Virus record (IMG/VR): IMGVR_UViG_3300028766_000004
Span: 1-64,000 of that record
Length of the DNA: 64,000 nucleotides
Strand: one strand, 5' to 3'
Source: a virus
In this document: positions 42,008 to 59,693 of the stretch, piece by piece
Numbering within the stretch: the first letter of the stretch is position 1
Layout of the letters: the number at the start of each line of letters is the position of its first letter
The notes under the pieces: generated by a model
Told to the model about the DNA's origin: nothing
Databases searched by the model: none
The model's input: only the letters and a program-made list of their open reading frames with translations
Made by a program: the position numbers and the translations under genes

Positions 42008-42200
42008 TTGATACTCCCCACGAATAAATTCGGGGGATTCTAGCGTTCTTTCGAACGCCTTAACTGTTTCAACCAGCGTAGCTGAATTTCTCTAGACTTA
42101 CACACTGTCCGCAGTCGTTTAACGACTCCATGTATCCCAAGGCGTCGAGTATCCTGATTCCTTCCGCTTTCAGATTTAGAGATGCGTTTCCATCCCGGCT
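41988..42200 (-). ncRNA. Putative TnpB omega/reRNA with flanking guide (boundaries approximate)
   Basis: Expected from IS200/IS605 architecture; the guide would begin CAACAATAAAGTTCGTGC after TCAA. Confidence 0.5.
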
Positions 42201-43244
42201 GTGATGACTTCCACAAGAAGGACAGTTCCACTCTCTATCTGAAAGAGTTAGGTTATTGTTTTTGTATCCGCATTCGCTGCACAGTTTCGTGCTTGGAAAG
42301 AACCTATCAACCTGGACTGCGTGCCTGTTATTCCAAAGTGATTTATACTTCCATTGTCGAACTGTTTCTCCGAATGCGGCATCGAGCATCGACTTAGCCA
42401 GCTTGGTTTTCGCAAGACCTTTGATGCTTAAATCTTCAAGACACAGCGCTGGATACTTTTCAACCAGACCATGCGTTAGTTGATGAGCAAAATTACTCCG
42501 TAGATTTGAAATCCGTTCATAGACCTTTGCAACAGCGGCAACTGCTTTGGCACGGTTACGACTACCTTTAACGCGACGGCACACCTTTTGTTGAGCTTTC
42601 TTTAGCTTTTGAGCATGACGACGGTAGAACTTTGGAACTGAGACCTCGTCCCCGTCAGACAGCGTTAGATATGTATTCAATCCAAGATCGCCACCTTGCA
42701 CCTGCTCAGGTTTTACCTTTGGCAAACATTCTGTTAATTCAAACTCAGAAACTAATATAACAAACCAACGACCCGTTGCTGTGCGCTTAAATGTCGCTGA
42801 TTTTGTTTCACCGTCAATGATTCGTGATTGACGTATCTTTATCCAGCCGATCTTAGGAACATACACTTTACCATCTTTTACCACTACTCTCTGTGGTATA
42901 CGGAAGGTTTGTTTTGTACTCTTCTTGGTTTTGAATACAGGAAATCCGGCATTCATCTTTGGGTTGAAATGGTTATCGTATGCACGCTTCAAATTCTTTA
43001 GAACCTGCTGCAACGACTGTGAATCAAAATCGTACATCCACGGCCTAGACTCTTTGAATTTAGTGAGTTCCACGGATAATCGTGACTGAGATATGCTTTT
43101 CTTGTTTTCTTTGTAGAATGTCCGGCAGCAATCCAAAGCAAGGTTCCACACAAGCCTAGATGCCCCCGCTTGGCACAAAAGTTTCTGTGCTTCGTCAGAC
43201 GTTGGCTCCATGCGGAATTTGAACACCTTGCGTTGTTTAGACAT
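42069..43244 (-). CDS. tnpB: RNA-guided endonuclease TnpB
   Basis: RuvC D-E-D residues in GDLG, LEDL and RDGNA; Zn finger CSECG...CPSCG. Confidence 0.95.
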   Translation of the reverse strand: MSKQRKVFKFRMEPTSDEAQKLLCQAGASRLVWNLALDCCRTFYKENKKSISQSRLSVELTKFKESRPWMYDFDSQSLQQVLKNLKRAYDNHFNPKMNAGFPVFKTKKSTKQTFRIPQRVVVKDGKVYVPKIGWIKIRQSRIIDGETKSATFKRTATGRWFVILVSEFELTECLPKVKPEQVQGGDLGLNTYLTLSDGDEVSVPKFYRRHAQKLKKAQQKVCRRVKGSRNRAKAVAAVAKVYERISNLRSNFAHQLTHGLVEKYPALCLEDLSIKGLAKTKLAKSMLDAAFGETVRQWKYKSLWNNRHAVQVDRFFPSTKLCSECGYKNNNLTLSDREWNCPSCGSHHSRDGNASLNLKAEGIRILDALGYMESLNDCGQCVSLEKFSYAG

Positions 43245-43638
43245 TTTTCTGATTTTCAACGTACTGTTTTATTACTTCCAGTGGAGACCCGCCAACTGTT
43301 GAAACAAAATAGCTATTTGTCCACAACGTCGGCAACTTTGATTTCAGCGTTCTAAACTCATTTCTCAGCGTGTGAGATGAAACACCCTTCATGTTCTTGA
43401 CAAGGCGGTGAATGCCAAACTGAGGATCAATTTCCACGAGTACGTGAACATGGTCTGGCATGATTTCTAGCGCAATTACTTCTGCCTTATACTTCTCTGC
43501 CACTTGCCTAATGACAGATTCGCACCGTGCTGCAATATCACCAATCAAAACACTGCGCCTATACTTCGGCGTCCATACCACATGGTACTTGCTCGAATAC
43601 ACCACATTTAAGTTCGATTTGTAGCCTTCTAGTGCCAT
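43237..43638 (-). CDS. tnpA: Y1 HUH transposase
   Basis: YHVVWTPKYRR, MPDHVH, LWTNSYF, YVENQ. Confidence 0.96.
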   Translation of the reverse strand: MALEGYKSNLNVVYSSKYHVVWTPKYRRSVLIGDIAARCESVIRQVAEKYKAEVIALEIMPDHVHVLVEIDPQFGIHRLVKNMKGVSSHTLRNEFRTLKSKLPTLWTNSYFVSTVGGSPLEVIKQYVENQKNV

Positions 43639-44140: not shown

Positions 44141-45571
44141 TTACGAAATATCGCCAACATTGATGATACGAACCCATTTCCGAGGAGCATACATTACCAA
44201 AGTTCCATACAGCAATATCATCCAACGAATAGCCGGGCCGATAACAGCGAGGTCCATCTTCATAAGCGGTGCAAGCTGCTTGAAAGCGAGGACTTCGTTA
44301 TCCATTTGACCAAGGTAGCAAGTGCTAACCACAGTCATATAGAGGCCTGTATCGGTGTATGTCGTTGTTGCGGAGGCAGTAACAGAAGCAGCTGCAACCG
44401 AGAACAGGTAGTAGAACGAACCTGTAGACGACACATCACAAGCATAAACGTTGAAGTAATCGGGCACCAAACCGCTCATCGAAGCAGGGTTGGTAATGGT
44501 CAACAGTGAAGAGTTTCCAGCGGAAACGTCACCAGATGAAACCACCAAACCAGATGAAGCAGCAGTAGCTGCAGACTCACCAAAGCGGTTAACAGCGGTC
44601 GCCTTGTAGTAACGAGTCCCAGGATTCTTCCATGCGCCAATCTGTGCAGAGTTGTAAGCGGTGGAAGCAGGAGAGATAGAAGCAGGTGTTTGAGGAGCGT
44701 TAGCCGAAGTTGCTGCACTCGGTGCCAAACCAGTAGCCTTACGGTTCTTGGTAAGGAATACATCAGACAGAATGTCGATGTTACCGAACTGTGAAGCGAA
44801 CGTGTTGATCACGCTACCAGCAGCATATCCACCGGACGCTGTTGGGAGCAATGCACGCTCTTTCGGGAAGAAGGTCTTGGAGAAGTCGCTAGCCACCTTG
44901 TAGGGGGTGTAGAGACATGATGCACGACCAAACTGCTCGGCAATCAGCTCGCAAGCGTCTTCCAGAATACCTTCAGTTAACGACCCACCCTTGGCGTCGA
45001 TAATCATCGTAGGATCGATCTGTGCTTCCAGACCAGCCCACTCGATGCCTTCCTTTCCGCCCGACACATTGCTGTATCCAGCAGTCAGAGTGTTGTTGCC
45101 CCAGAACAGCGAACGCTCAATTTGCTGTAGAAGCCAAAGAATGCCGTTCTTGTTCTCCAGTGCAACCACATCACCGTGAGCGCTGCGAACCATCGTCATA
45201 ACATGGGAAACCACACGTGTGGTGCCCAAGAACTTGACAAGTGCAACCTTACGGCTGTAGTTGCTATCCTGTGTTTCAGGCATCACTGCCTCAGGAATGA
45301 AGGCGTTGCTGTTATCGCCATAGGCGGTAAGCTGGTTATATTCCTCAACGGTGTTGAATGCTGGCATCTTGGGGAGATTCTTCCACAGACGAATATTCTG
45401 TTCTGTGAACGATAGAACCTTTAATGAGCTTTCGAGCGATTCCACACGGAACGCTCCACCGCCTGCTTGGTCGGTAACCCCGTAGTTGTACCCAGCTGAC
45501 AAAGCCTTCTGCAAGTCGGGAACATCTCTTGATTCACCGTAACCGTTAATACCACGAAAGTCTAAAGCCAT
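44141..45571 (-). CDS. Major capsid protein
   Basis: LQKALSAG, GGAFRVESLE, VEEYNQ, FWGN, LAPLMKMDLA, LYGTL..YAPRKW; GGAGG RBS. Confidence 0.93.
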   Translation of the reverse strand: MALDFRGINGYGESRDVPDLQKALSAGYNYGVTDQAGGGAFRVESLESSLKVLSFTEQNIRLWKNLPKMPAFNTVEEYNQLTAYGDNSNAFIPEAVMPETQDSNYSRKVALVKFLGTTRVVSHVMTMVRSAHGDVVALENKNGILWLLQQIERSLFWGNNTLTAGYSNVSGGKEGIEWAGLEAQIDPTMIIDAKGGSLTEGILEDACELIAEQFGRASCLYTPYKVASDFSKTFFPKERALLPTASGGYAAGSVINTFASQFGNIDILSDVFLTKNRKATGLAPSAATSANAPQTPASISPASTAYNSAQIGAWKNPGTRYYKATAVNRFGESAATAASSGLVVSSGDVSAGNSSLLTITNPASMSGLVPDYFNVYACDVSSTGSFYYLFSVAAASVTASATTTYTDTGLYMTVVSTCYLGQMDNEVLAFKQLAPLMKMDLAVIGPAIRWMILLYGTLVMYAPRKWVRIINVGDIS

Positions 45572-45597
45572 GTTATCCTCCAAAAAATCAGCAGTGA

Positions 45598-46500
45598 TTA
45601 AGCTACTGGCAATCCAACCAACTCACGAAGCTCGGGGCGAACAAAACCGGAAGCATCAGCTGAAAGTACATCAGCCACTGTTACGCTCTTGTTACCACTT
45701 TCCATGAGAGTTGTAAGCTTTGCAGCAATATCGCTCTTCTTAAGTTCTGTTCCCTCTTTACCACCGAAGCTCTTCTCAACAACGCTGACATCGGATTTAC
45801 GCTGCCCAGCAGGTGTCGTACCGAAAGATTCAACCTTTTCAGTCAAGCCCTTTAGCAAAATACCAACTTGCTGCATAGCCTTTGCAAGCGCCACATTGAA
45901 TTCGCCTTGACCAGCCTGACGTGCCAACGACTTCTCAACACGAGCTGACAAACCATCTGTTGATTCCGAAACTGCATACACAAAATCACGAAGATAGTCG
46001 GAAATGTCGATGGCCTTCGAAACAGCTTCTGAATTCTCGGCTAGCGTATCGGCAAATGATTTCTTTGTCTTCTTTTTCTTGCTAGCTGATTTGAACTCAG
46101 GCTCTCGGGCCTCTTCCTCTTCCTCTTCCTCTTCTGGACGTGACCTCCGACGAGGAGCAAACTCCTGCTCTTCCTCTTCTTCCTGTTCTGGAAGGGGGAA
46201 TCCCTTCTTGGCAACTTCCTCAACGCCCTTCTTGGTCTTGGGCTGCTCTTCTGTTTCGCCCTCGCCATGTTGGCCGTATTTCTTCTGCAGTTCCTTGGCG
46301 TCTTCAGCAACTTCTTTAGCCGTACGCTTGTCGGTATCGTTTTCCTTTGCAGGAGCTGGACGAACACCCTTAGAAACATTCTCGAGAACAGCTAAGCTCT
46401 TATCGAGACTCTCGAAGCTAAGACCAGCAGCCGACTTTGATGTGCAAGCTGAGCAAGCAGCGCCATTTGTTTGAGTACCGCATTCGCCACAAAATTTCAT
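45598..46500 (-). CDS. Scaffold-like head protein
   Basis: Acidic/charged protein between protease and capsid; many hxK[SAG] sites; N-terminal CxxC...CxxC. Confidence 0.7.
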   Translation of the reverse strand: MKFCGECGTQTNGAACSACTSKSAAGLSFESLDKSLAVLENVSKGVRPAPAKENDTDKRTAKEVAEDAKELQKKYGQHGEGETEEQPKTKKGVEEVAKKGFPLPEQEEEEEQEFAPRRRSRPEEEEEEEEAREPEFKSASKKKKTKKSFADTLAENSEAVSKAIDISDYLRDFVYAVSESTDGLSARVEKSLARQAGQGEFNVALAKAMQQVGILLKGLTEKVESFGTTPAGQRKSDVSVVEKSFGGKEGTELKKSDIAAKLTTLMESGNKSVTVADVLSADASGFVRPELRELVGLPVA

Positions 46501-46548: not shown

Positions 46549-48762
46549 TTACTTCTTAACCTTTTGAGCTAAACCTGATATATCTCCGTCATTCTTCACC
46601 ATCAATAAGAGTATCCGGTCGGCTTGAGCCTCAGGGATACCACGATTAACGAGAAAGTCTAGTGCATCACGAAGCGTAACGTATGTTTGACCACCGTTAG
46701 CACGTGCTGTATCAAACTCAACCTTAGTAGTCTTCAGGTCGGGAGCAATCACCTTCCCATAAGACAAATCTTTTTGCTGACCTTCTAATGATTCCACCCT
46801 TAATGCTGAACCACCTGTTTGGTCAGTTACACCGAAAGCATATCCAGTAACCAAAGCCTTTTCGATACAGCTATCATCACAATATGAATGGCCGTCTTCT
46901 ACCATATACATATTTCCTTTGATGATGATTTCCTTACACACATCACAAGCTTCAGTACTATCAGCAGCACATATGAGCGCTTTCTTAATCAGCTTGTTTT
47001 TATCCAAAAACTTGTGATTGATACCGAATCCATCAAGATACTTCTTACATTTGTCTTTACCCTTTGCACCAGTCTTTGGATCATCAGCAAATATTCTTGA
47101 ACCAATCGTTTCCAACGTCCCCTTAGCATTAGGAAGTGCATGAAGAACAGCAAATGCGCCTGTGTCTCCATCGCCAGAAACAGATACTTGATGCTTCTTA
47201 TCCTTGTCTTCGTAGGTAACACTATGAAGTGGCATCTTCTTATCCCCAAGCTTTATTTCTCCACCGTGAGAATGAATTGTTGTCCACTTCGTACTTTTTT
47301 CAAACCATCCATTATCAATCGATGAAATAGACTTTGTTATGGGAGAAATTGGCATTTTTGGAGCTTTCAAAGAACTGTCTAGTGCTCCGACATGTGTTCC
47401 AGTCGTAACATCACCACTAGGATGAATATGAGTAAATCCAGTATGTGATATGTGTAACATGCCTTTCTCTGGAGATGCAAAACTGGTCACAGTTTTGTGA
47501 GTATTCATCCCTAAAGGTTTCATTCCATGTCCGTTCTTTATACCATTATGGATACCAGAATCTATTCCTTGGTTTACATGGCTGTAATTTTGTTTATTTT
47601 CACCATAATGACCAATCTTGAAATCGTTGACTCTGGGATCGTATGAAGATATCTTCGGTTCAATCTCAATACCCTTTTCTAAATCCGTATCAATCGATTT
47701 CTTAGCAGTAGTTGGTCTATGTACACCATTCACTATTGGTCCAATTTCTTTGTGGTTCTTGTCGGAGTCTGCCTCGGCGTGTGAGTGCATTGTCTTATTC
47801 TCTTCATGCCCTTGCTCATCGCCTTTCAGCGCTTTACCTTCTTCTATATCCGGAACGATTGCTTGGTCTTCTTTAGGAAGTTTGAATGTGCTTTTTTTAC
47901 CTTTAATCACAACATCGCCGTTTTGATTAACTTCGATTGTGAATAGTGGTTCTGATTCGACGCCTTTCTTAGCCAGCGGAACATCATCTAATTGCTTTTC
48001 CATATCCTGCTTCGGCTTCTTATCACTCAACGCTCTCTTGGTTTCGTCTAATGCATCCTTCTCTTCCACATCGATTTGATTAACCACAGGAGACTTTGTC
48101 GCCTCTTCTGTTCTTTCTAAAACATTGTCGGCTTTCTTCTCTTCACCTTCCGGCTTAGTATCTGTATCTGGTTTCTGCGTAGTCTTGGTTTGAGTTACGT
48201 CAGCAGCAACTCCTTTGTTAATAGCTTCTTCGTTTTCGCCAAACACAAGAACCTCATCATACTTCTGTGAAGCAAACGATTTTGCAATATCCAAGAACGT
48301 GTTCGGATTGATGGGTGATGCTGTGATGGCGATATCTTTAATCCAAGCCTTGGTGATGATTGTGTGGTCGCTGGCATCACGAGATAACACCTTACCCTCT
48401 ACAGAGAATCCCAATTTACGGGCATCTCCAGCTTTCTTTAATCCCTCAGCCAAATCCCAAATTCCATTCGCTCTCGGTGTATCAAGCAGGAATCCCTTCG
48501 TCCACAACCCTTTAGATGTGATACGTGCTTCTGTTGGGATACCGACTTTACCTGACGTTTCTTTTGCATGATCATCATTGAAGTATCCGCGCTTCAAGAA
48601 ATAGCTTAATTCCAAACCATCCTGTTTAATCTTCTCGCCTTGTAAGTCTTTGTGGTCTGTACTAGCAATACCTTCGATCCAGCGCTTGCCATCTTCGCCT
48701 TTAGCTAGATTAGCTTCGTACCAGAATTCGAATGTACCGTCTTGTTTGATCGCGTTCGCCAT
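46549..48762 (-). CDS. Prohead protease with long C-terminal extension
   Basis: IEGIAST..KDLQGE, GYFNDDH, LGFSVEG, IAITASPINP.T. Confidence 0.9.
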   Translation of the reverse strand: MANAIKQDGTFEFWYEANLAKGEDGKRWIEGIASTDHKDLQGEKIKQDGLELSYFLKRGYFNDDHAKETSGKVGIPTEARITSKGLWTKGFLLDTPRANGIWDLAEGLKKAGDARKLGFSVEGKVLSRDASDHTIITKAWIKDIAITASPINPNTFLDIAKSFASQKYDEVLVFGENEEAINKGVAADVTQTKTTQKPDTDTKPEGEEKKADNVLERTEEATKSPVVNQIDVEEKDALDETKRALSDKKPKQDMEKQLDDVPLAKKGVESEPLFTIEVNQNGDVVIKGKKSTFKLPKEDQAIVPDIEEGKALKGDEQGHEENKTMHSHAEADSDKNHKEIGPIVNGVHRPTTAKKSIDTDLEKGIEIEPKISSYDPRVNDFKIGHYGENKQNYSHVNQGIDSGIHNGIKNGHGMKPLGMNTHKTVTSFASPEKGMLHISHTGFTHIHPSGDVTTGTHVGALDSSLKAPKMPISPITKSISSIDNGWFEKSTKWTTIHSHGGEIKLGDKKMPLHSVTYEDKDKKHQVSVSGDGDTGAFAVLHALPNAKGTLETIGSRIFADDPKTGAKGKDKCKKYLDGFGINHKFLDKNKLIKKALICAADSTEACDVCKEIIIKGNMYMVEDGHSYCDDSCIEKALVTGYAFGVTDQTGGSALRVESLEGQQKDLSYGKVIAPDLKTTKVEFDTARANGGQTYVTLRDALDFLVNRGIPEAQADRILLLMVKNDGDISGLAQKVKK

Positions 48763-48776
48763 TATATCCTCACAAA

Positions 48777-48826
48777 CAAAAAAGGGAGAAAACATATACG
48801 GGCAGTTGTGCCGTACGTTTTCTCCC
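48777..48826 (-). terminator. Stem-loop with U-tract just upstream of the protease RBS
   Basis: GGGAGAAAAC...GTTTTCTCCC followed by TTTTTT on the minus strand. Confidence 0.6.
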
Positions 48827-48991: not shown

Positions 48992-49249
48992 TTAATGTTT
49001 TTTATTAGACATTTCTACAATGAATCTTGGGCGTTCTGTAGATGATTTACGAACTTCGTTGCCAAGTTCGATGACAAATCCAGCACCTTTAGCACGAAAT
49101 TCAAGAGGTAGACTGTTGAATCCTCGACACATATTACACTGAACGATAGCCGTATCACTACCTTCCCATCGAATACTCTTACTGCGCAGTTTCACCGTCT
49201 GACCATAAGATTTTAATAACGGAGCACCACAAGTACAGTTGATTACCAT
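48992..49249 (-). CDS. Zn-ribbon small protein
   Basis: CTCG...CNMC. Confidence 0.65.
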   Translation of the reverse strand: MVINCTCGAPLLKSYGQTVKLRSKSIRWEGSDTAIVQCNMCRGFNSLPLEFRAKGAGFVIELGNEVRKSSTERPRFIVEMSNKKH

Positions 49250-49255
49250 AATTTC

Positions 49256-49840
49256 CTATAATGCATCCTCGAAGTGATTAGCTAATCGTTCTAGCTTGTG
49301 CTTCAAAGCAGAGCTCAATGGTCTCTTCGAAAGCTCGTCAACTGTCTTAAACATCCCAGACGTCTTTCGTTCTGCCGTTCCACTCAAACGAGTGGGTTTT
49401 ACATCCGGCGATGTAAACACTGATTCCAATCCTTCATCCATATAACCAAGTTCTTTGATAATCACCTTGCATGTGAACAAAACCTGTCTAAGTCTGGCAA
49501 TCTCACCATCTTCAAAAGAATTAATAGTATCGACTATCTTAATTATCACTGGAAGAATGAAGTTAAATGGTTCTTCGTTGGTTCCGTGATTAACGTATAA
49601 CGGTGTTATTTTTTGTTTCTTCGACGTCTTATATTCCTTCGGTAGTCTACGTCTAGCTGTAGGTGTTTTAACACGCACATCAGTACTCCTTCCGGGAGAA
49701 ACACGTTTATGACGCTGTTTTTCATTGGAGTATGGATTAATCCAAACTAGCTTACCACCCCTATGTTCGAAATATCCCTTCACGTTCCCCTTTTCGAACG
49801 TAATGATGGGGATAATGTCTTTATTCTGTTCCATCGACAC
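49256..49840 (-). CDS. Basic putative head-packaged protein
   Basis: N-terminal FEKG-NVKGY...GKLV..PY motif shared with 51762-55799. Confidence 0.6.
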   Translation of the reverse strand: MSMEQNKDIIPIITFEKGNVKGYFEHRGGKLVWINPYSNEKQRHKRVSPGRSTDVRVKTPTARRRLPKEYKTSKKQKITPLYVNHGTNEEPFNFILPVIIKIVDTINSFEDGEIARLRQVLFTCKVIIKELGYMDEGLESVFTSPDVKPTRLSGTAERKTSGMFKTVDELSKRPLSSALKHKLERLANHFEDAL

Positions 49841-50129
49841 TGACTCTCAAGCTATCTAAAAAGCTCTTATCGTCTGATGTTAGCAGCTCTTTAAACTCTT
49901 TCTGTTTTCTCGACGTCTTAATAACGTGAGAAAATTTAGGTCTCTTGTTGGTGTATCGTCTGTTAGACGTTGCAACGTTTTCAACTTTCAAATCTTGTGG
50001 GTCGAACATCAAATTAAATTCTACGTTGTTGCATGTGATAGCTATGCAATTTGTTTCTTCTGGTAAACCATCTGGAAAGACAGCCTTAATGAACGAAGTT
50101 ACATTCTTTTTATATTGTTGGCTTTCCAT
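49821..50129 (-). CDS. Hypothetical protein
   Basis: GGAG RBS; 102-aa ORF. Confidence 0.6.
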   Translation of the reverse strand: MESQQYKKNVTSFIKAVFPDGLPEETNCIAITCNNVEFNLMFDPQDLKVENVATSNRRYTNKRPKFSHVIKTSRKQKEFKELLTSDDKSFLDSLRVSVDGTE

Positions 50130-50149
50130 ATTTTAGCTCCGTAAACACA

Positions 50150-50182
50150 CTAAAAGCAGCGATGATTAGTCGCTGCTTTTAG
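50150..50182. terminator. Intrinsic terminator
   Basis: CTAAAAGCAGCGA/TCGCTGCTTTTAG perfect stem. Confidence 0.85.
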
Positions 50183-50189
50183 TTTTGGA

Positions 50190-51194
50190 TTAGTAAATTC
50201 CAAGTGGTTGTCCAGTTCCGCCAAGTGGGTTATTCCAGCACTGAATTTCATCTTGGTCGGTGATGCCAAAATTGCTTAGTGGTGCAGCATAATCGTTTCT
50301 TACACCGCCAGTCAGAGTTCCACCAGAAGCTGTTACTGTAACGCCGGTTCCAGTAGCAGTCAATGTCAGGTTGAATCCACCTGTTGACGTAAGAGTGATT
50401 ACAGCGGAAGCGGCAACAGCCTTAACACCAACATTGGCAGTATTAATTGCAGCGGCTAACGATGCTGCAATACCGTTCAAGTTTGTATCACCAGCTTGAG
50501 TTGTGTAGCTGACGAGAACTCCGCCGATTGTTGCAGTCAACACGACGCCAGCGGCGAATGTTCCGCCGACAGTCAGTGTTCCAGTAGCATTAGTAGCACC
50601 AGAGAAAGTTACAATCGAGTTAGTTACAGAAGTGATAAGGAACGTTGCACCTGTTCCGTGTCCACCAGTTGCAGGTACACCAGTAATACCCGGAAGTTGG
50701 GTAACTCCGTTAACGATGGATTGTCCAGTATATCCACCAGCATCAGTCGTCTTGTAGTTTGTACCGTTAGTGGTCTGTGTGAATGTTGCAATTGTGCCAG
50801 CCACACCATTAACAGTGGCGATAGAAGCCACAGTGACGGTTGCATTGTCGGTATTTGTATAGGCTGCACCGTCGTAGTTCTTATCAAGTGCCGTTGGAGA
50901 CTGATTCAGCGTCAGAACATCACCTATCTGATATCCACTTCCAGCGAAACCGAGAGCGACACCACCAGCAGATATCGGGCCGGTAGGACTGACCACGGTT
51001 AGATTGGAAATTGCTGATTCAACTGGAAGAACTGGGTTGGGCTGAGCACCAACTTTATTAGTAAGTCCAAATCCTTGAAACAGTCTTGCACCAGTCTTGT
51101 CAAATGCCTCACGAGCGAAATCCGTAAGCGTAGCGGTATCAGAGATGATAATCGACTGTCTCTTGATACCCGGAATTGTTAAATAAAGCTGCAT
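50190..51194 (-). CDS. Putative split ubiquitin-like (beta-grasp) protein carrying inserted Ig-like virion domains
   Basis: GGAGG then ATG at 51194; termini align with ubiquitin halves; Gly/Thr-rich insert shared with the sheath. Confidence 0.6.
   Translation of the reverse strand: MQLYLTIPGIKRQSIIISDTATLTDFAREAFDKTGARLFQGFGLTNKVGAQPNPVLPVESAISNLTVVSPTGPISAGGVALGFAGSGYQIGDVLTLNQSPTALDKNYDGAAYTNTDNATVTVASIATVNGVAGTIATFTQTTNGTNYKTTDAGGYTGQSIVNGVTQLPGITGVPATGGHGTGATFLITSVTNSIVTFSGATNATGTLTVGGTFAAGVVLTATIGGVLVSYTTQAGDTNLNGIAASLAAAINTANVGVKAVAASAVITLTSTGGFNLTLTATGTGVTVTASGGTLTGGVRNDYAAPLSNFGITDQDEIQCWNNPLGGTGQPLGIY
50481..50588. repeat. 108-bp exact repeat, copy 2
   Basis: Identical to 38007-38114. 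Confidence 0.95.
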
Positions 51195-51300
51195 ATTGAA
51201 ATCCTCCAAATCTTGTGAGGGTGCATCTCAAAGGACGGTCGTGTATTACACGAACAATACCCCTCACTCGCATTATCACTTGTGATAGGTAGAAAGGCAA

Positions 51301-51747
51301 CTAAATTGACTCGTCAGATGCTTCTAGAGCCTCTTTACCTGTTTTATGTTCATCATTAACATGTAGTTCAGCCCATGTTGGTTGTGGTGTCAAACTGTCT
51401 TTAATTTCCTTATAAAGTTGCTCATCTAGGCTATGAAAGGTAAACATATTTCTTGCTTCATCAGATTGAATAGGGCGAACTACATATATTGTTCCAGAAT
51501 CAGACCGCAAAATTACACGTTTCTTGGCTTTTTCGATCATGAAATCATATAGGGTGAATGATCTGATTGGCTCATACGGGAGTTCTGAAGACGGCTTTAG
51601 AAGAACGTAATGCACATCTGACAGTTCCGGAACAACCACCATTACAGCGATTGCTCCGACTTCTTCTTGCGCATTGAAGAGTAGCTCAGCGCCAACTTCT
51701 GATTCAATCAATTGATCTAATGCTGTCTGCAATTTTTCTAAATTCAT
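51301..51747 (-). CDS. Acidic hypothetical protein, possible partner of the upstream enzyme
   Basis: 148-aa ORF starting 14 nt after the kinase/ART gene. Confidence 0.6.
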   Translation of the reverse strand: MNLEKLQTALDQLIESEVGAELLFNAQEEVGAIAVMVVVPELSDVHYVLLKPSSELPYEPIRSFTLYDFMIEKAKKRVILRSDSGTIYVVRPIQSDEARNMFTFHSLDEQLYKEIKDSLTPQPTWAELHVNDEHKTGKEALEASDESI

Positions 51748-51761
51748 CTACATAACCAGCC

Positions 51762-54700
51762 TTACACGCCTAAAAAGGTAGTGTGATTAAGCATGTGGGG
51801 TTTGTGTTTCTTTATTACTGCCTTAAGCTTCTTCTTGAAGGTTGATGTTCCCTTTGGTCCCAACAGCCATTTGTAAAGACTAATACGGTTTTTAAAGTTC
51901 AACTCATGAACATGTGAACCATTCTTAACATAATCCATAGCACCTATACGGTTCTCAGTTTTAGTGTATCCGCTATATCCACTGCCTGCTTCAAACGTCG
52001 CACCGTAATTGTCATTGGAATAGGCTAGGGTGTCGGTACGAGCTAGCAGCTCGGGGCGGAATATAAACCCATTAGAACCTTTGCTGCTATCGTTTTCTAA
52101 TTCTTGTCCTTTTGGAACACATTTACTACCGTTCTGCAGATTATTAAATACGTATGCTGCACCACCGCTAGATTGATCTGTGGTGGAACTCATACCATCA
52201 ACCTTGAATCCCATCTGGTGCCTAGCCTCAGTGGATAGCATACCCAAATTAACCATGTTTGTTACAGCATCAATATCAGAATCATTACTACCAGTAATAC
52301 CGTGCGACGTTATTGGAACTGTATCCGACTCTTGGAGATGGTCAAGAACCCAAGGATTCAAGAAATAATGATATCCAGTGTTATCATCCCACTGCGGCAT
52401 TGGGTTGTAATTCTTCAATTCATCTGGAGACTTTCCGTATACCTCTGTAGCTAGTTCTTTTAGCGCCTTTATTTTGTCGGGGCCATTCTCCATAGCTGTT
52501 ACTTTTTTCCATTTTTTTGCATTAGAGACGTCTCCCTTATTATGAAAAATGGAGCGAGTGAGGTACAAACACTCAATATCATCATGATTGGATAAGCGGT
52601 GATCTAATCCCATATCCTTAAGGGTATGACGGAGTTGATGCATAGATTCGAGATTACCATCCCACTTGTGCATGTCAATCATCAAAGAACCCTGTTGGCT
52701 TCTATAGTTGTTCTGCCCGTGCAGCTGTGTTGAATAATGTGGGTAGTAACGAACCTCAATGTTCCCCGGCAAACTCTTGCTAAACATTGTTCCGTAGTTT
52801 GCTTGTTCTTTGTATGTGGCCTTCTTCTCGCCTTTCGTCCTAATTAAACCACCCGTAGCAGGGTCGTATTCAAACTTCGGGAACGAAGCCCAAGGCTTAT
52901 TGGTTTTGGATACACTGGTAGACTTAACATCATATCCGTCTTTTCCTGCCCACTTGCCGTACATCTTAGAAGCAGTTTTACCGCCGGTCTTTACTGCTTG
53001 CATTACATGTGTTGCAATCTGGTGATAATGGTTGGCAACGTCTAGAGAAAGAGCGATAGGGTTATTGAAGTTGTCTTTATTGATGTTGGTCGACTGAAAC
53101 TTCATAGCCAAATCACCAATATCAAGCAACGGTTCATTCGGGTCGAACTTATCGAGCCCTTGGAACATTTTGGCGAATTCGTTCATCTTGGTTTCGTTTG
53201 GATTCCCATCTGGGTTCTTTCCACCGTTCTTACAGTGATTATTAACTGTTTTGGCTGCAGAAATTACAATATCGCCAGCTGTGTCTTTAGGCAACGGTCC
53301 AAGCTGGTGTATGTATTCAACTTGTTGGTCTACGACCGTGTCGAACCAACCCAATATTTTCGCTTCCGAACCTGCGAGAACCTTACCAGATGCTGTTAAT
53401 CCCTTATTACCGTCTTTCCAATCATAGGTAGTGAACAACATGTTCATATCTTCAATGTCGCCGCCGCCGAGCATGATCGCCTTACCACTTGCCTTTGCAT
53501 CTACAACATGGGCATGGAATGTAGCATCGATATTCTGGAATGCATCCGGTTGGTGTGTTTCGGATGCCGGAAGTTCTTCTTGTTCTGCTTGGCTATAAGA
53601 ACCGTGTTTGGCATCGTATTCAGTGGCAATACCAGCCGATGCATATAGCTTTTTGAAATCCTTGAGCAGGTCTTCTTTACGCTGAACACCGAGGTTAACA
53701 AAATCATGCTGTTTGTTACCCCAAGCTGCAGAATGAGCTGCGTACGGGAATAACATCTTAGTCCATGCCAACGGAGTAAGATTCTTCATGTTATGTTCGA
53801 TGAAGTTCTGGACAGGTGCCCAATCCAGCTTGATATCACCAGCTTTAGCAGCTTCTAACATCAGGTTGTAAATCTGAGCTAACTTTTTATGATTAACGTT
53901 TGGGTCGTACGTTAAATCAAGCTTATCTTGTTTGTAAAACTTGAAAGCTTGTCCCTTATCAACACCAATAATTTTGCCATCGTTCAAAACAACAAACTGC
54001 TCTTGGTGAGCATCGTTGTTTCCGAGGAGCCAATCCACTACATGTTCTTGTTGAAAGCGTTCAATAATTTCTTTCGGTACACTTGCCCAACCCTTCTTGA
54101 TAAGGTGTCCAATATCTTTATGCTTAACATTTGGCATAACGCGCTGTACAGAACCTACAGCGTTACTACCAGCATAATGACCACCTGAGCCGGATGGAAT
54201 TTTAACAGTAATCGGTTTCGAACCAAATTCGGCTGTGGGGAGGCCTGTAGCTTGAGCAACTTTACAAGCGATGATATCAGCCCATGCACGTTGAGGTTCT
54301 TCAGCCAGATACGGCTTGAACAGGTATTGATGACCATCGCCCGGGTCGAGAATGTATTTTGTATGAATACCGCCAAACCCAAAATTATCGGCAGTTCCCA
54401 TAACCTTGAATTTTTTGGGGTCGGAGAACAGGTTGGCAATGTCGTCTTCATCGATAGATTCAGGCGCTGGCGTCGGTGTTTTCTTTGCTTCAGGATTAAT
54501 CTTGTCTTCAGGGATTGTAAATGATGGTCCAGTTTTCTTTGGCGCAGCTGGCTTATCCTTCGGTGGTGGAGGAACCATTTGCGCTGCTGGCGCTGGAACG
54601 GCAGGTTGCGGGTACTTAAAAATCTGGTCGGTTGTATCGTGAATAACAGAACCGTGAACATTGGCAACTTCTGTATAGTTAAGATCAGCTCCCCATACAT

Positions 54701-55799
54701 TCTTCTGTGGTTTAGGTACAGAAGGTGTAGAACCAGTTTCCTTCTTAATCTCAGCCATCAAGCTGTCTAATTCATCTTCATCGATTTTTTCATCAGTGGT
54801 TTGAAGTGGGAAGCTATTTTTATACCATGCTTCCGGCATGATGAATGGTTCTTTCTTCGACTTCTTTTTGTGGTACTTGGGGAACGGAACATCCGGTGCT
54901 CCCTGTTCCTTCAATGTTTTCAAATCATTAAGAAGGTTTTGCATCGCCTTATAATGAGTTCCATCACTATATCCACTAGCGCTAACCTGTTCCACAAGCA
55001 ACTTGAACGGTACGACAGCTATGGGGTTTAGGCTTTCTAATAGCGCTTTCTGTTCCTTAGTCATATCCGACTTATTCTTCGGATAAGTACCATCTGCATT
55101 AACGAACTGATCTTTATTGTTCTGAAATGCAAATATTTCACTCGTACGCTGCAATTTGAACCACAAGTGTTGAAGATCGTAAAACTGTCCCAGCTGCACG
55201 TCGTTCAAATGCTTGTAGTGTACTGGCTGGCCTTTTTCGTCTGTGTTGTGATCTTCTTTCTCGTCTTGACGATTCTCTGCATCACCCTTGCGAATGTGCA
55301 TCAAACTCTTGGGTTTGTAAGACTCTACTTTTCCGTTCTGTAGCTGCACGTTAATGAGTAGTCCGGCGTGACTAACGTCGTCTCGAATACCAACAACAAC
55401 TCCAACTAGGAATTGTTGATCGTGCATATGGGAATAACGAACAAAAACTTGGTCGCCGTATTGATACGATGTGTAGTGTTCGTTAACACTAGATAATGGC
55501 TGGCCGGGTTTCATAACCTTCGGATGGATGCCAAGATGTCCAGTCGAAGCCGGTGTTAATCCGTTTTCTTTGTAATACTGTTCCGTCAATTCTTCAGGCT
55601 TCTTGGTCACCTTGTTGTGGTACGAATCAACGTGAACCATTTTGCCATTCACAATTTTGTAATACGAATGAACGAAAGCCTTTTTCATCGGAAGGACGAC
55701 GAAAGCCGCCTGCCCCAGAGGTGTATCGTGCAGGGTCGCTTTATCCATTTCCTTAATCTCGTTTGGACTGTAAATGTCGAATTGGTTGGATTTTATCAT
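51762..55799 (-). CDS. Multidomain protein: SH3/KOW-like + PI3/4K-HipA-like kinase + C-terminal ART-like domain
   Basis: GGIHTKY, YLFKP, GSVQ, DWLLGNNDAH, VDKGQAF; C-terminal SHG, GMLST..R, SGGAAYVF, AY..D.YG, HELNFK. Confidence 0.7.
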   Translation of the reverse strand: MIKSNQFDIYSPNEIKEMDKATLHDTPLGQAAFVVLPMKKAFVHSYYKIVNGKMVHVDSYHNKVTKKPEELTEQYYKENGLTPASTGHLGIHPKVMKPGQPLSSVNEHYTSYQYGDQVFVRYSHMHDQQFLVGVVVGIRDDVSHAGLLINVQLQNGKVESYKPKSLMHIRKGDAENRQDEKEDHNTDEKGQPVHYKHLNDVQLGQFYDLQHLWFKLQRTSEIFAFQNNKDQFVNADGTYPKNKSDMTKEQKALLESLNPIAVVPFKLLVEQVSASGYSDGTHYKAMQNLLNDLKTLKEQGAPDVPFPKYHKKKSKKEPFIMPEAWYKNSFPLQTTDEKIDEDELDSLMAEIKKETGSTPSVPKPQKNVWGADLNYTEVANVHGSVIHDTTDQIFKYPQPAVPAPAAQMVPPPPKDKPAAPKKTGPSFTIPEDKINPEAKKTPTPAPESIDEDDIANLFSDPKKFKVMGTADNFGFGGIHTKYILDPGDGHQYLFKPYLAEEPQRAWADIIACKVAQATGLPTAEFGSKPITVKIPSGSGGHYAGSNAVGSVQRVMPNVKHKDIGHLIKKGWASVPKEIIERFQQEHVVDWLLGNNDAHQEQFVVLNDGKIIGVDKGQAFKFYKQDKLDLTYDPNVNHKKLAQIYNLMLEAAKAGDIKLDWAPVQNFIEHNMKNLTPLAWTKMLFPYAAHSAAWGNKQHDFVNLGVQRKEDLLKDFKKLYASAGIATEYDAKHGSYSQAEQEELPASETHQPDAFQNIDATFHAHVVDAKASGKAIMLGGGDIEDMNMLFTTYDWKDGNKGLTASGKVLAGSEAKILGWFDTVVDQQVEYIHQLGPLPKDTAGDIVISAAKTVNNHCKNGGKNPDGNPNETKMNEFAKMFQGLDKFDPNEPLLDIGDLAMKFQSTNINKDNFNNPIALSLDVANHYHQIATHVMQAVKTGGKTASKMYGKWAGKDGYDVKSTSVSKTNKPWASFPKFEYDPATGGLIRTKGEKKATYKEQANYGTMFSKSLPGNIEVRYYPHYSTQLHGQNNYRSQQGSLMIDMHKWDGNLESMHQLRHTLKDMGLDHRLSNHDDIECLYLTRSIFHNKGDVSNAKKWKKVTAMENGPDKIKALKELATEVYGKSPDELKNYNPMPQWDDNTGYHYFLNPWVLDHLQESDTVPITSHGITGSNDSDIDAVTNMVNLGMLSTEARHQMGFKVDGMSSTTDQSSGGAAYVFNNLQNGSKCVPKGQELENDSSKGSNGFIFRPELLARTDTLAYSNDNYGATFEAGSGYSGYTKTENRIGAMDYVKNGSHVHELNFKNRISLYKWLLGPKGTSTFKKKLKAVIKKHKPHMLNHTTFLGV

Positions 55800-55805
55800 T
55801 AGACA

Positions 55806-56222
55806 TTACGAGGTGCGTGGAACTGCACCCACCCTCTCGTTGGCTTTAAGCCATAATTGTTCGTATAGTGTGTTTACAAGGTGTGGTTGGCAATCATCCT
55901 TGTATTCTATTTTTCCATCCTTCACATCCAAATGATGGTCGTTCTTTGCCAGTTTCTCGAATTCCCGTTTAAAGGCTTCAGGATTGTTTTTTTCTCCGTC
56001 TTCGCCATGGCTTACATCCAGTTTGTTCAAGAGCATATGATGATTAACGGCGTTAACGGCAGACCGCAAAAACGACATGTATTTATCGCCTTTCTTGCCT
56101 TTATAATTATCTTGGATGTGTTGGGTTAGCAAGGTGTGAAATTTTAACGGATGCTCGTGTTGATAATCGGGGGTAAACCCTTTTATACCAACTAACCCTG
56201 CAATATGTATACCATGTATCAT
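55806..56222 (-). CDS. His-rich hypothetical protein
   Basis: Tightly packed ORF. Confidence 0.6.
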   Translation of the reverse strand: MIHGIHIAGLVGIKGFTPDYQHEHPLKFHTLLTQHIQDNYKGKKGDKYMSFLRSAVNAVNHHMLLNKLDVSHGEDGEKNNPEAFKREFEKLAKNDHHLDVKDGKIEYKDDCQPHLVNTLYEQLWLKANERVGAVPRTS

Positions 56223-56226
56223 ATAT

Positions 56227-59200
56227 TTACCCCTTAAATATAAACTTCACACCTTCATTTTTTTTGTCTATAAACACAAACGATTTATATCCCATATCAT
56301 CTTCTTGCTCTTTTTCAAGTTTAGCAATTTGTTCAGCTGGAGTTAATTCTTTAGGATCGGTTTCCTCAGGATTCGATTCTTCGTCGAATATGAGCGGCTC
56401 TGGTTCTTCAACTCCAACTGCTTTTTGTTTTTCATGATACCATTGTTTAACTTTTTTCCGCCATGCTTGTTTGGCCGCTTCTTCTGTCTCTATATCACCG
56501 CCAATATGGCTATTCCAATCAATAGAATCTGGAGGTGTGTGATAAAAAAGACCGTGCATAAAATCAATCTTTCTTTCACCCTTACGTCTTAATGTACCCG
56601 GCCCGGCCAAACTTCCACCTCCACCGTAATGTCTATTCGAGTCGGCAATGAAGTCGAACATTTTTCTATCTTCATGAGATACATATGGATTGTCGTCAAC
56701 AAGTGCATCTCCAAGTGCTTTCAGCGGATCGAAACCATCTGCTTCTCCAAGAACCTTCTTTGCGTTTTGGTCAAGCGTCTCTTCATCTACGTCGTTTTTT
56801 TTGTTAATTTTTGGCTTCTTTCTACGGATCAAAGAATTAAGTTCTTCAAATTCCTCTTCTCTAGATAGCACATCTTCACGAGTCTGAGGATTTACGTGAT
56901 ATTTGCTGAATTGAAGAGCGGTTATAACAACTTTATTCGCATTCATTCGTGCAACATTTTTGCTCGCCTCTTCCTCTGTTGCGCCGTTTTTCATTTCTTC
57001 TTTAATCTGTTCTTGCGACGGTTCAACCAAACCTACAATAAATTTCCATTTACGCTGTGCAGTATCTCCTTTAGCTCCAGTTTTTGCAGCGTGTAACCAC
57101 TTAGGTATATCATCGTGATTGGCTCCGTTTTTCTTCGAAAATTGTTTTATAAGTTCTTCTAAACGGTTTGTAAAATCGCCATCTTCTACGTATTTAATCA
57201 TCCTATCGTTGGCTACATGGACTAATCCATTGGGATTCCCGTCTGAACCAAACAACGTAGAGAACGATCCTTTTTGAACAAGCTTTTGCATTGCTGCGGC
57301 GTTAGGTGGTTGGTAGTCTTGATGATTCTTATTATATATTCCATCCAACACCTGGTCTTCTTTCCAATGATCCCCAATGTCTTGATCTTTTTCTTGTAGA
57401 CCATCATCGAAACTTAACGCTTCTTCACCAGATTCTGGTGTTTCATCCTCAAGACTATTTTGTGTTTCATCACTATTTTCATATTCATCATCTTTATTGT
57501 AATCTTTAGACTGCTGTAAATCTGATACATCTAAATTTTCACCGTCATCTGTCTTGTGATCGGTGCTAACCGTTTTGATTCCTTTTTGTTGAGCAGCTAA
57601 TTCTGCGAGTTTTTCTTCTTTTTTTGATATTTCGTCTTTTAATTCCTTATATTTGCCAATCCCAGGAAGTCCACTCTCAAGCTTTTTCAATTTGTCTTGA
57701 ATCTGCTTAACATTATCCAAAGATGGGTTAAGTTCTGCCTCTATTGCATCTTTTTGGTCGAAAAGGTCATCCAACTTCAAGTCGAGCTTTGGGTCTGCCA
57801 GTTCTTGCATGGATTTTATATCTTTAGACATCTTGTATGTTTTAATTTTCAATTCTGTCAGAACATCGTTATACTTCTCCGGAAGCACTAACGATGTAAT
57901 GCGCTTTTCAGCAAGATTTAAATTATGTTCCGTTTCGTCTTGGTCTTGGTCTTCGATTCCATCTACAGCTACCGTTAGTCTTTGGAGGATGTATCTAATT
58001 ACATCTTTCTGACTTTTTGTAAGGTCTGTTGCTTTATCTAGCGTTTCAACTATATCGTAAACATCGCTTCCATTTTGCTGAGCGTTAGCCTTATGTTTCT
58101 GAATTTCTCCATCAATGTCTTCAGGTGTGAGACGAGAGATGTCGTGTTTCAACGCTTCAAACTTCGACCCAAGTTCATCCGCCTTCTTCGTATGTCCTAA
58201 TAATTCTCCATGCGCAACATCGTATTGATCGTACGGATTCTGAGAAATCTCCTTTAATTTACCCATATTTACTAGTTGTTCTCTAAGTCCAATCATGGTT
58301 GGAGCTTCAGCTATCTTATTACCACTGTGATCAGAAATAGAATAAGTATAGCCACCATTCTGGTTTTGAACAAGCTGGTTAAAGACTGCTCCAATTCCAG
58401 TAGCAACGTCCTTCATATTCTGCATCGTTGTTACGTTATTTAGGTCTGGAACCTCATAAACACCTTCCTTCTGTACACCGGCTTGTTTCAGACCACCCAC
58501 GCTCTCAATTTTATCCCTGAGGTCTTTCATTGTTGGAGCTTCAGCTATTTTATTACCACTGTGATCGGAAATAGAATAAGTGTAGCTACCGTCCTGGTTT
58601 TTAATCGGATCGTCGAGCACACCTCCAATTCCAACAGCCAATTTGTGAACATCAAGCTCCTCTTTTGCACTCTTGACTGATCTTGCTTTCACAGATTGCT
58701 TTTCATATTCTTTATGGCCTGTTAGCTCACCAAACTTCCTTTTTTCCAGCAAAACACGATTAGCCCAAGTATCAATCATCTGAAAGTCTGGTATCACACT
58801 TTCACGAGTATTCCAATCATATCCCTTGTGATATTCATGCGTATATGGAGTACTTTCTAGTTTCCCTTCTTCTTTGGCTTTTTCACCCTTCTCATTGAGT
58901 TGCAGACTTGGACCCATCTCTTGAATAATTTTTTCGACAACTTCCGGAATTTCGTGCTCTAATGTAAATCCAGAACCTTCTGTATTCATGAGTTTTTTTA
59001 TTGCGGGGAGTTGTTTCACTCTTGCAAATACAATTTTGTTCAAATCTCTTCTAAGGACTTTATTTTCCTTTTCGTTGAAGTGTTTGAATGGGTTGGCTGA
59101 TTCAGACACATGCTCTTCTTTTTCGTGATCAGGAAGTTTATGAAAATGGTGATGTTCTAAATATCTTTGCTTATGTACTCTTGGAAGCAGGTCTTTGAGT

Positions 59201-59601
59201 CCCATGTGTGCCTCATCCTTTTCAGAAGGCTCAGGAACAGGAGCTGATTCAATCTTCGGTGGTACTGAATGGTCCCAATCCGCAGGGACTTTTTGCCTGT
59301 TAGGTGCGTACTTCGAAAATAATTTAGGAGCCTTTACTTTCTTTTTAGCCGGTGTATTGACTGTGAATTTTTCCGGTGTGAATCCGTACTGTTCTTGTGG
59401 CCCACCATCTGGTGGCGATGATTGAGCTAAAGTATGTGGAACTGTAAGAATCTCTTTAGGAGCTACGGGAATCTCTTTAGGAGTTGTGGATGACGAATTA
59501 TAAGGATGAGATGATTCCAAATCTGATTTTTTGACACTTTTAGTGTTTCTAAGAAAGTTATAATGGATTTCGTCCAACGTCATCACTTCAAATTTTGACA
59601 T
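56227..59601 (-). CDS. Large charged putative internal head protein
   Basis: About 1120 aa; K[S] sites near both termini; internal 78-aa repeat. Confidence 0.65.
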   Translation of the reverse strand: MSKFEVMTLDEIHYNFLRNTKSVKKSDLESSHPYNSSSTTPKEIPVAPKEILTVPHTLAQSSPPDGGPQEQYGFTPEKFTVNTPAKKKVKAPKLFSKYAPNRQKVPADWDHSVPPKIESAPVPEPSEKDEAHMGLKDLLPRVHKQRYLEHHHFHKLPDHEKEEHVSESANPFKHFNEKENKVLRRDLNKIVFARVKQLPAIKKLMNTEGSGFTLEHEIPEVVEKIIQEMGPSLQLNEKGEKAKEEGKLESTPYTHEYHKGYDWNTRESVIPDFQMIDTWANRVLLEKRKFGELTGHKEYEKQSVKARSVKSAKEELDVHKLAVGIGGVLDDPIKNQDGSYTYSISDHSGNKIAEAPTMKDLRDKIESVGGLKQAGVQKEGVYEVPDLNNVTTMQNMKDVATGIGAVFNQLVQNQNGGYTYSISDHSGNKIAEAPTMIGLREQLVNMGKLKEISQNPYDQYDVAHGELLGHTKKADELGSKFEALKHDISRLTPEDIDGEIQKHKANAQQNGSDVYDIVETLDKATDLTKSQKDVIRYILQRLTVAVDGIEDQDQDETEHNLNLAEKRITSLVLPEKYNDVLTELKIKTYKMSKDIKSMQELADPKLDLKLDDLFDQKDAIEAELNPSLDNVKQIQDKLKKLESGLPGIGKYKELKDEISKKEEKLAELAAQQKGIKTVSTDHKTDDGENLDVSDLQQSKDYNKDDEYENSDETQNSLEDETPESGEEALSFDDGLQEKDQDIGDHWKEDQVLDGIYNKNHQDYQPPNAAAMQKLVQKGSFSTLFGSDGNPNGLVHVANDRMIKYVEDGDFTNRLEELIKQFSKKNGANHDDIPKWLHAAKTGAKGDTAQRKWKFIVGLVEPSQEQIKEEMKNGATEEEASKNVARMNANKVVITALQFSKYHVNPQTREDVLSREEEFEELNSLIRRKKPKINKKNDVDEETLDQNAKKVLGEADGFDPLKALGDALVDDNPYVSHEDRKMFDFIADSNRHYGGGGSLAGPGTLRRKGERKIDFMHGLFYHTPPDSIDWNSHIGGDIETEEAAKQAWRKKVKQWYHEKQKAVGVEEPEPLIFDEESNPEETDPKELTPAEQIAKLEKEQEDDMGYKSFVFIDKKNEGVKFIFKG
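58294..58640. repeat. Internal duplication with a 234-nt period
   Basis: YTYSISDHSGNKIAEAPTM occurs twice. Confidence 0.9.
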
Positions 59602-59693
59602 TTTCTTCCCCACAATCCGTCAATCGAACAGAACACAGCCCAACCTATATTTAAATCTATTTTTAGCTATATGTCTAGGAATATACAGACGGA

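Follow-up and report, generated by a model that had tools for sequence, protein, structure and literature searches.

The ubiquitin-like proteins (Ubls) of the phage world known so far are of two kinds, lambda gpI and the tags of host defence operons. According to the available part of its description, gpI (TAPI) carries an Ubl-like domain with a conserved C-terminal glycine, followed by a glycine-rich linker and another small domain, and its gene is flanked by gpK (JAB/NlpC) and gpJ within the tail module of a siphovirus; as far as that part of the source goes, gpI of lambda and T1 was the only phage Ubl-like protein with a C-terminal glycine in the literature that we searched (PMC1779556). 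Bil and Bub operons, in the accessible portions of the reports on them, are host operons in which an Ubl with a C-terminal glycine stands beside an activating enzyme (E1), a conjugating enzyme (E2) and a deubiquitinase, and they belong to a phage-host conflict that involves phage tail proteins (10.1101/2023.09.04.556158, PMC10557695). Here we analysed a window of 64,000 nucleotides, which is the first 64 kb of the 88,968-bp IMG/VR virus record IMGVR_UViG_3300028766_000004, estimated by CheckV to be about 54% complete. On its minus strand the window encodes P0001, a protein of 334 residues whose two ends are predicted to fold together as one ubiquitin-like domain around a large insert. Unlike gpI, in which the additional domain comes after the Ubl domain, P0001 holds its additional domain inside it, and its gene lies between portal and protease in a myovirus; unlike the Ubls of Bil and Bub operons, it is a lone phage gene. 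We consider, with a probability of about 50%, that P0001 is a virion-surface display protein on a ubiquitin-like base.

Residues 1-42 and 298-326 of P0001 are predicted to form a single ubiquitin-like beta-grasp, split by an insert of about 255 residues. The parts of the gene are given below, with the model confidence as predicted local distance difference test (pLDDT) scores and profile matches with their expectation values (E).

50190-51194, minus strand: P0001 gene, 334 residues, predicted split ubiquitin-fold protein (ATG at 51194, TAA at 50190-50192)
51069-51194, minus strand: N-terminal half of the predicted beta-grasp, residues 1-42, strand-strand-helix-strand (pLDDT 82-95; matches 11 small proteins)
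50601-51068, minus strand: first part of the insert, residues 43-198, Gly/Thr-rich (pLDDT <50)
50304-50600, minus strand: sheath-type domain with a flagellin D2-D3-like fold, residues 199-297 (residues 201-270 at pLDDT about 88-96; phrog_165, E 0.0035)
50217-50303, minus strand: C-terminal half of the predicted beta-grasp, residues 298-326, ending P-L-G-G (pLDDT 80-91 for residues 300-322; motif conserved)
50217-50222, minus strand: codons of Gly325-Gly326, from the translation
50193-50216, minus strand: eight-residue tail after Gly-Gly, identical in the variant P0002 and found in no relative

The fold was read from an AlphaFold2 model built with a 25-row alignment, which places strands at residues 2-6 and 13-16, a helix at 23-34 and isolated strand residues within 38-45, and near the C-terminus a short helix (306-309) followed by a strand (316-318), with pLDDT below 50 for residues 43-198 and 323-334. 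A fold search of this model with VIA-align against 48,161 PDB representative chains listed 50 rows, 33 of which span model residues 1 to 320-334 and have titles naming ubiquitin, Ubl or UBX proteins, including ubiquitin, Dsk2, Rad60 SLD2, NP95, Hub1, ISG15, FAT10, FAF1 UBX and OTU1. These spanning rows align 59-73 residues at 6-22% identity, with a root-mean-square deviation of 2.3-4.6 and Z of 5.9-7.1, and in VIA-align a Z below 8 can denote a common arrangement. On the model side the alignments stop at residues 320-328, and on the ubiquitin side at residues 72-75; in the match to 8q7r_U, model residues 1-326 pair with ubiquitin residues 1-75, and in this match and in 7r70_A model residue 326 pairs with about ubiquitin residue 75, so that G325-G326 fall at about the position of ubiquitin G75-G76. 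Additionally, 12/17 family members gave sub-threshold Pfam matches to the OTU1 UBX-like domain (the best at E 0.0047), 3/17 matched RA_2 and 2/17 TGS, and in an analysis of ESM features the relative P0063 came near the Rad60-SLD and ubiquitin clusters (0.88). It is the uniformity of the 33 rows, together with these independent hints, that argues for a beta-grasp, rather than the height of the Z scores. The co-folding of the termini, on which the first-pass annotation had made its reading of P0001 depend, was thus recovered at prediction level in the AlphaFold2 model and in 33/50 VIA-align rows, and the insert of ~250 residues that it had placed near the beta3-beta4 turn corresponds to about 255 residues after the third strand. 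For the residue-by-residue alignment to ubiquitin given in that annotation, this fold comparison serves as the substitute.

Sequence comparison gave a different picture. Among the 17 members searched, the Pfam ubiquitin family (PF00240) had no match at E <= 10, neither Pfam nor NCBIfam gave a match to ThiS/MoaD models, a Pfam scan gave none to Lambda_tail_I, and PADLOC returned only two single-member matches at chance level (Cas5 and PDC-M17A). A profile search of PDB sequences with the family alignment had 0 matches at E <= 10. In hhalign, the last strand and tail of the family fell in register with E. coli MoaD over 19 columns at 47% identity, a match that is not significant (probability 1.8%, E 0.028), and a single column aligned with lambda gpI (probability 0.2%). 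The 50 VIA-align rows listed contain no ThiS/MoaD or gpI structure, which excludes nothing. P0001 is therefore a beta-grasp protein by predicted fold, and not by sequence a member of the ubiquitin, ThiS/MoaD, gpI or tested defence Ubl families. It has in common with ubiquitin and with Ubl and UBX proteins of eukaryotic type the predicted beta-grasp topology and a flexible tail reaching Gly-Gly at the matching position, and differs from them in that its domain is split by ~255 residues, its Gly-Gly is followed by eight residues and no conjugation enzymes are encoded nearby. ThiS and MoaD are small beta-grasp proteins of the prokaryote world that end in Gly-Gly, as most full-length relatives of P0001 do; however, the neighbours of P0001 are phage head genes and orphans, with no ThiF/MoeB, and given the virion-type inserts of the family a cofactor role is unlikely.

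Could the likeness to ubiquitin be a product of chance or of modelling, with the termini merely flanking a sheath-like protein? We consider this highly improbable. It is true that a Z of ~7 lies inside the tool's stated background for best matches, that Foldseek searches of PDB and BFVD matched the middle domain only, with no beta-grasp among the matches listed, that AlphaFold2 on P0001 alone, with no alignment, gave a useless model (pLDDT 36), and that two small carriers of the sheath-type domain, P0012 and P0022, show a segment resembling the start of the C-terminal half without the N-terminal half. However, relatives of 104-130 residues consist of little beyond the two halves, both of which are conserved, 33 rows spanning both halves carry ubiquitin, Ubl or UBX titles, and Pfam and ESM point to the ubiquitin superfamily independently of the model.

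These relatives came from a HMMER search over 1.84 billion protein representatives, in which 48 proteins matched at E <= 1e-3: the near-identical copy P0002, which differs from P0001 by one residue, 11 proteins matching only residues 1 to about 95, and 36 matching only residues 146-312. The 11 N-terminal matches are small proteins that have the conserved C-terminal motif too, and two profile searches added ten further members, giving 21 relatives of 104-340 residues, 19 of them full-length (P0010 and P0039 are cut by contig ends). All 21 share the N-terminal half, that is, the first ~45 residues with the order strand-strand-helix-strand followed by an F-N-G-F-G turn, and the 19 full-length relatives share the C-terminal half, which comprises the last ~25 residues with a short helix, G-D-E, a strand and P-[VL]-G-G. 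What lies between the halves differs: 35-60 unstructured-looking residues in the small relatives, of which those of 104-130 residues are hardly more than the two conserved halves; one Fn3-like module in relatives of ~220 residues, and two in P0050 and P0051; and in P0001 a Gly/Thr-rich stretch with the sheath-type domain. The inserts of the homologs thus vary in both length and type, a point on which the first-pass annotation had asked for evidence.

None of the family members has a name in any source, and they stand outside described families. Searches for related loci were negative throughout: neither P0001 nor P0053 had a tblastn match among 50,697 GenBank phage records; family alignments found no relative in viral, metagenome or genome contigs; single-protein searches found none for P0063 in viral and metagenome contigs or for P0062 and P0016 in viral contigs; and none of the 16 IMG/VR loci retrieved with a degenerate DNA pattern of the post-helix motif encodes a relative by tblastn (0/16). 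Five distant phage records reached via the capsid protein also held no relative. The exact P0001 sequence, on the other hand, occurs on 28 contigs of the protein collection.

The C-terminal ends of the family bear on the alternative that P0001 is a true ubiquitin-like modifier, whose C-terminal glycine would be activated, in P0001 after removal of the tail, and ligated to a lysine of the virion or host by enzymes encoded elsewhere in the phage or in the host. Exact Gly-Gly ends occur in 13/19 full-length relatives, three more end in a glycine plus one residue (GE, GA and GGQ), which could be one-residue caps, and 3/19 have no terminal glycine. Conservation of the Gly-Gly, which the first-pass annotation had named as decisive, therefore stands at 13/19 when counted strictly, or 13-16/19 when glycine plus one residue is included. 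The longer tail past Gly-Gly is found in P0001 alone; the annotation had likened it to the tail of Ubl precursors, and this is possible for P0001 itself, but the comparison rests on this one phage and most relatives stop at Gly-Gly. In relative P0062 the C-terminal extension is longer and the end is Gly-Gly-Gln, not Gly-Gly. A role as modifier also draws on the ubiquitin-like fold with G325-G326 at about ubiquitin's last residues, and on the model, which is disordered from residue 323 on, as in an Ubl tail. A phage-borne Ubl with a conserved C-terminal glycine is known from the available text on lambda gpI (PMC1779556).

Evidence for enzymes that could act on such an end was not found. Searched at E <= 1, the 88,968-bp record yielded neither E1 ThiF (PF00899) nor Prok-JAB (PF14464), while control genomes matched, and a Pfam scan of nine ORFs (open reading frames) near P0001 and 20 in the last 25 kb, 29 in all, revealed no E1, E2 or deubiquitinase, the domains found being terminase, NUDIX, dual-specificity phosphatase, HNH, primase and helicases. 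The earlier statement that no E1, E2 or JAB gene is recognisable thus extends to the whole record for ThiF and Prok-JAB and to the ORFs scanned by Pfam for E2. Given that the record is ~54% complete, the enzymes could be in the missing part; even so, three of 19 relatives have no terminal glycine, at reporting thresholds the members match no profile of ThiS/MoaD, ubiquitin or defence systems, and the insert leaves directly after strand 3. In ubiquitin, the site after strand 3 lies beside the surface used by E1 and E2. On balance we regard conjugation as unlikely, while noting that it would treat the inserted domains as cargo and could give a covalently attached decoration. A more specific form of the proposal, in which P0001 would be a virus-borne tag with cargo, seems to us rather unlikely; here an E1-like enzyme of the host, or a phage enzyme not recognised as such, would activate the Gly-Gly end and join it to lysines in capsid, sheath or host proteins.

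The insert is of virion type. The first-pass annotation had recognised in it a tail-sheath domain with a segment identical to the sheath of the same phage, and our results agree on both points: P0001 residues 201-270 match residues 108-183 of the window's own sheath protein at 74% identity over 76 residues, and within this region 108 nucleotides are identical base for base.

50481-50588, minus strand: 108-nt identical tract, copy in P0001, from DNA comparison
38007-38114, minus strand: 108-nt identical tract, copy in the sheath gene, from DNA comparison
36339-38441, minus strand: tail sheath gene, 700 residues, with the same outer domain as P0001 (phrog_279, 8.5e-53; Phage_sheath_1 below cut-off)

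The two copies lie 12.5 kb apart, and the aligned flanks of the tract are 58% identical (73/125), an identity at which the chance of a 108-nt identical run is about 6e-26. An identical run amid such flanks is therefore the signature of recent gene conversion between the P0001 and sheath genes, and by this comparison gene conversion holds a core of the P0001 insert domain identical to the sheath copy. A contig of one RNA library (run X15) jumps from P0001 to the sheath flank exactly at 50588, the edge of the tract; this is an assembly jump over the repeat and not a transcript, and illustrates that the repeat can mislead assemblers.

Structure comparison placed the same domain among virion and flagellar surface domains. 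Seventeen of the 50 listed VIA-align rows match residues 191-298, with Z 8-11.7 for phage sheath, nozzle, flagellin and FliD domains and the best at Z 10.2-11.7 over 87-96 residues, and include the nozzle of a T7-like cyanophage (Z 11.7), residues 92-184 of the cyanophage A-1(L) sheath (Z 11.2), residues 170-281 of P. aeruginosa FliC (Z 10.7) and residues 99-209 of the Mu sheath (Z 10.2), as well as FliD, T4 gp11, the surface-binding domains of two lytic polysaccharide monooxygenases (LPMOs) and a crAss001 capsid chain. The best Foldseek match was the Milano sheath (E 1e-3). P0001 residues 199-297 thus superpose on the outer domain of contractile sheaths, on flagellin D2-D3 and on FliD; unlike in sheath proteins, the domain in P0001 is an insert in a predicted ubiquitin-like base and not part of a sheath subunit. 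The PHROG tail-sheath match on P0001 covers residues 199-290 only, the conserved sheath core domains are absent, and Pfam gives only DUF7266 (E 0.061). The sheath-type domain may be present a second time, in degenerate form, at residues 43-198, which match residues 204-292 weakly (30% identity over 92 residues, E 9e-6 without composition correction).

The sheath-type domain also occurs well outside sheaths. Positions 92-215 of the tail sheath profile phrog_165 matched 5/9 small carriers tested. Pfam scans covered nine proteins, seven from the HMMER matches and two from a profile search, and ten small carriers of the middle domain, for which they gave nothing useful; among middle-domain carriers, P0011 was sheath-like and P0004 distal-tail-like, both below cut-off, and P0021 matched a Phage-tail_3 / Rcc01698-type (host-specificity-type) tail protein. 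The giant proteins P0003, P0009 and P0013 (2641-3762 residues) have 11-14 matched stretches of the domain, with 14 in P0003, and the domain is thus a building block of long repeat proteins as well. P0012 and P0022 carry the domain without the N-terminal half and continue into a segment that MAFFT aligned to the start of the P0001 C-terminal half. Given its presence in such varied virion proteins, we regard the sheath-type domain as a mobile surface module of virion proteins. Outside the family, the Fn3-like insert of the relatives was found in P0057 together with a podophage fibre domain, and the insert itself weakly matches a head-closure family.

Relatives thus carry the same base without an insert or with one or two Fn3-like modules, and the family therefore behaves as a display scaffold. 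In P0001 the connection after the third strand of the predicted beta-grasp has been opened to take about 255 residues. In the display reading, the beta-grasp and the conserved P-[VL]-G-G end may dock P0001 on the particle or on a partner, and the inserted domain would be displayed outward, with the same job as on the sheath, probably the weak binding of a cell-surface or environmental ligand. Capsid decoration proteins such as T5 pb10 likewise combine an anchor with a displayed domain, with capsid binding being putative in P0001. To our knowledge no decoration protein has an anchor of ubiquitin-like fold, and the literature searched contained none; a limited literature search also found no phage protein whose ubiquitin fold is interrupted by a virion domain. 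We favour display because it accounts for the types of insert, the conversion with the sheath gene, the position of the gene and its signals.

Several points weigh against this reading. The presence of P0001 in the virion is putative, and a plain non-covalent decoration leaves the exact Gly-Gly stop of 13/19 relatives unexplained. The beta-grasp model was built on only ~15 informative alignment rows, its Z of ~7 is within the tool's range for models without clear matches, and residues 43-198 are without a confident model. Additionally, the portal gene adjoins the protease gene in Bacillus phage YungSlug, the one annotated relative inspected, where the block of eight ORFs that includes P0001 is absent, and since the other members of this block are orphans, synteny gives no structural role for P0001. 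A complex prediction for the capsid protein with P0001 scored 0.00, which is no answer and counts neither for nor against binding.

The likeness of the insert to a tail protein also bears on a counter-defence role, in which P0001 would mimic a host Ubl, or an Ubl fused to its tail-type target, and so occupy or misdirect Bil-type machinery. P0001 unites an Ubl fold and Gly-Gly with a tail-protein domain held identical to that of the real sheath, and its gene belongs to a block specific to the lineage, apart from the core structural genes, both of which would suit a decoy; in the accessible part of the report on them, Bil systems conjugate their Ubl to the phage central tail fibre (10.1101/2023.09.04.556158). 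However, that known target is the tail fibre and not the sheath, PADLOC gave 0 meaningful matches for 17 members, no Bil system can be linked to a host of this phage, and no phage-encoded Ubl decoy was found in the literature searched. Given also that Fn3-type or absent inserts in relatives suit display better than mimicry of a single target, we find a decoy improbable, and leave a slightly smaller share still to functions beyond those discussed here.

The signals of the P0001 gene were largely as first described: the ORF at 50190-51194 is real, with 334 codons on the minus strand, a strong ribosome-binding site precedes its ATG, and Gly-Gly at 50217-50222 is followed by eight residues and the stop.

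51203-51207, minus strand: GGAGG ribosome-binding site, 8 nt before the ATG, read from the sequence
50149-50183, no strand assigned: terminator-like palindromic hairpin of 15 pairs (6 G-C) with a loop of 5, 7 nt past the P0001 stop, from a hairpin scan

An alternative TTG start at 51209 overlaps this ribosome-binding site, and every relative begins at the ATG position. Of the terminator that the annotation had assigned to the gene, the hairpin directly after the stop was found, but it was scored on the plus strand, and in the reading direction of the gene the stem is followed by a broken run of T; from its sequence it is better described as a terminator-like palindrome than as a proven P0001 terminator.

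The source virus is an uncultured, Herelleviridae-like peat phage: its capsid protein has 42-45% identity to capsids of Bacillus SPO1-like Herelleviridae, and window DNA is present in 14 metagenome runs from peat, from which it may come. All structural genes of the window are on the minus strand, and P0001 is encoded in the head-morphogenesis region, with the portal gene on one side and the prohead protease gene on the other.

59867-62566, minus strand: portal gene with intein (Pfam, PHROG)
46549-48795, minus strand: prohead protease gene (Pfam/PHROG assignment)
45598-46500, minus strand: scaffold gene (Pfam/PHROG assignment)
44141-45583, minus strand: capsid gene (Pfam/PHROG assignment)

Eight ORFs, P0001 among them, occupy the minus strand between portal and protease (48992-59613) and form a block within the head region that is specific to this lineage. 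Two orphans of the block, of 1345 and 1128 residues, have no Pfam or PHROG match; the former contains what we take, by eye, to be a HipA/PI3-4-kinase-like catalytic-loop motif. A small cysteine-bearing partner was also sought by eye: the 148-residue ORF upstream of P0001 is without cysteine, and the 102-residue ORF downstream has two cysteines but lies beyond the hairpin. Elsewhere in the head region, Pfam placed the portal intein at residues 203-530 (Intein_splicing), with a LAGLIDADG_3 homing-endonuclease domain at 394-437 and Phage_portal from 528 on, and an IS200/IS605-type transposase pair directly follows the capsid gene at 42069-43638 on the minus strand (phrog_2577 at 43237-43638 and phrog_506 at 42069-43259). 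The capsid protein (residues 24-59) and the prohead protease (644-679) have in common a 36-residue motif at 61% identity (E 6e-10), which may be a capsid-targeting or interaction segment in both proteins.

The position of the gene close to that of the prohead protease is one of the points that would suit an assembly factor in the manner of lambda gpI, acting transiently in head or tail assembly, possibly cut by the phage protease and not kept in the particle. P0001 combines an Ubl fold with Gly-rich sequence, as gpI in the available part of its description combines an Ubl domain with a glycine-rich linker and another small domain (PMC1779556). However, hhalign and the Lambda_tail_I model revealed no sequence relation between the two (one column, 0.2%; no match), the P0001 gene is in the head region and not beside a gpK/gpJ-type pair, no JAB was found, and it is difficult to see why a transient factor would carry a folded surface-type domain held identical to that of the sheath. 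We therefore hold an assembly role to be distinctly unlikely.

Of the sampled window words, 31-57% were present in six metatranscriptome runs of peat or permafrost, which belong to five studies. In four of these RNA libraries, from four studies, contigs span the greater part of P0001, such as 50210-51071 in X16, and agree with it fully apart from one variant that equals P0002; they cover the capsid gene too. No contig of the four libraries falls on 51132-51979 and the 1345-residue gene has thin cover, which has no bearing on transcript ends or levels. Given that RNA contigs may contain DNA and cannot rank genes, and that the runs were chosen using this stretch, they lend weak support to expression of P0001.

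In our study, the P0001 family emerged as a third form of phage-world ubiquitin-like protein, namely lone phage genes that keep a Gly-Gly end and whose predicted ubiquitin fold is opened for exchangeable virion-surface domains. If the ubiquitin-like base is only an anchor, it would be a new anchor fold for phage display and decoration proteins, and the window would offer a clean example of gene conversion that keeps one surface domain the same in two genes related to the virion. If P0001 is instead a tag, it would decorate the particle covalently, or pre-empt host tagging of Bil type, with exchangeable surface domains. The members of 104-130 residues are easy targets for structure determination and biochemistry. 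Finally, if the Gly-Gly end is used chemically, viruses would here encode a means of protein ligation in which no E1 is recognisable, which would bear on the origin of ubiquitin-type conjugation and on phage answers to Bil-type defences.

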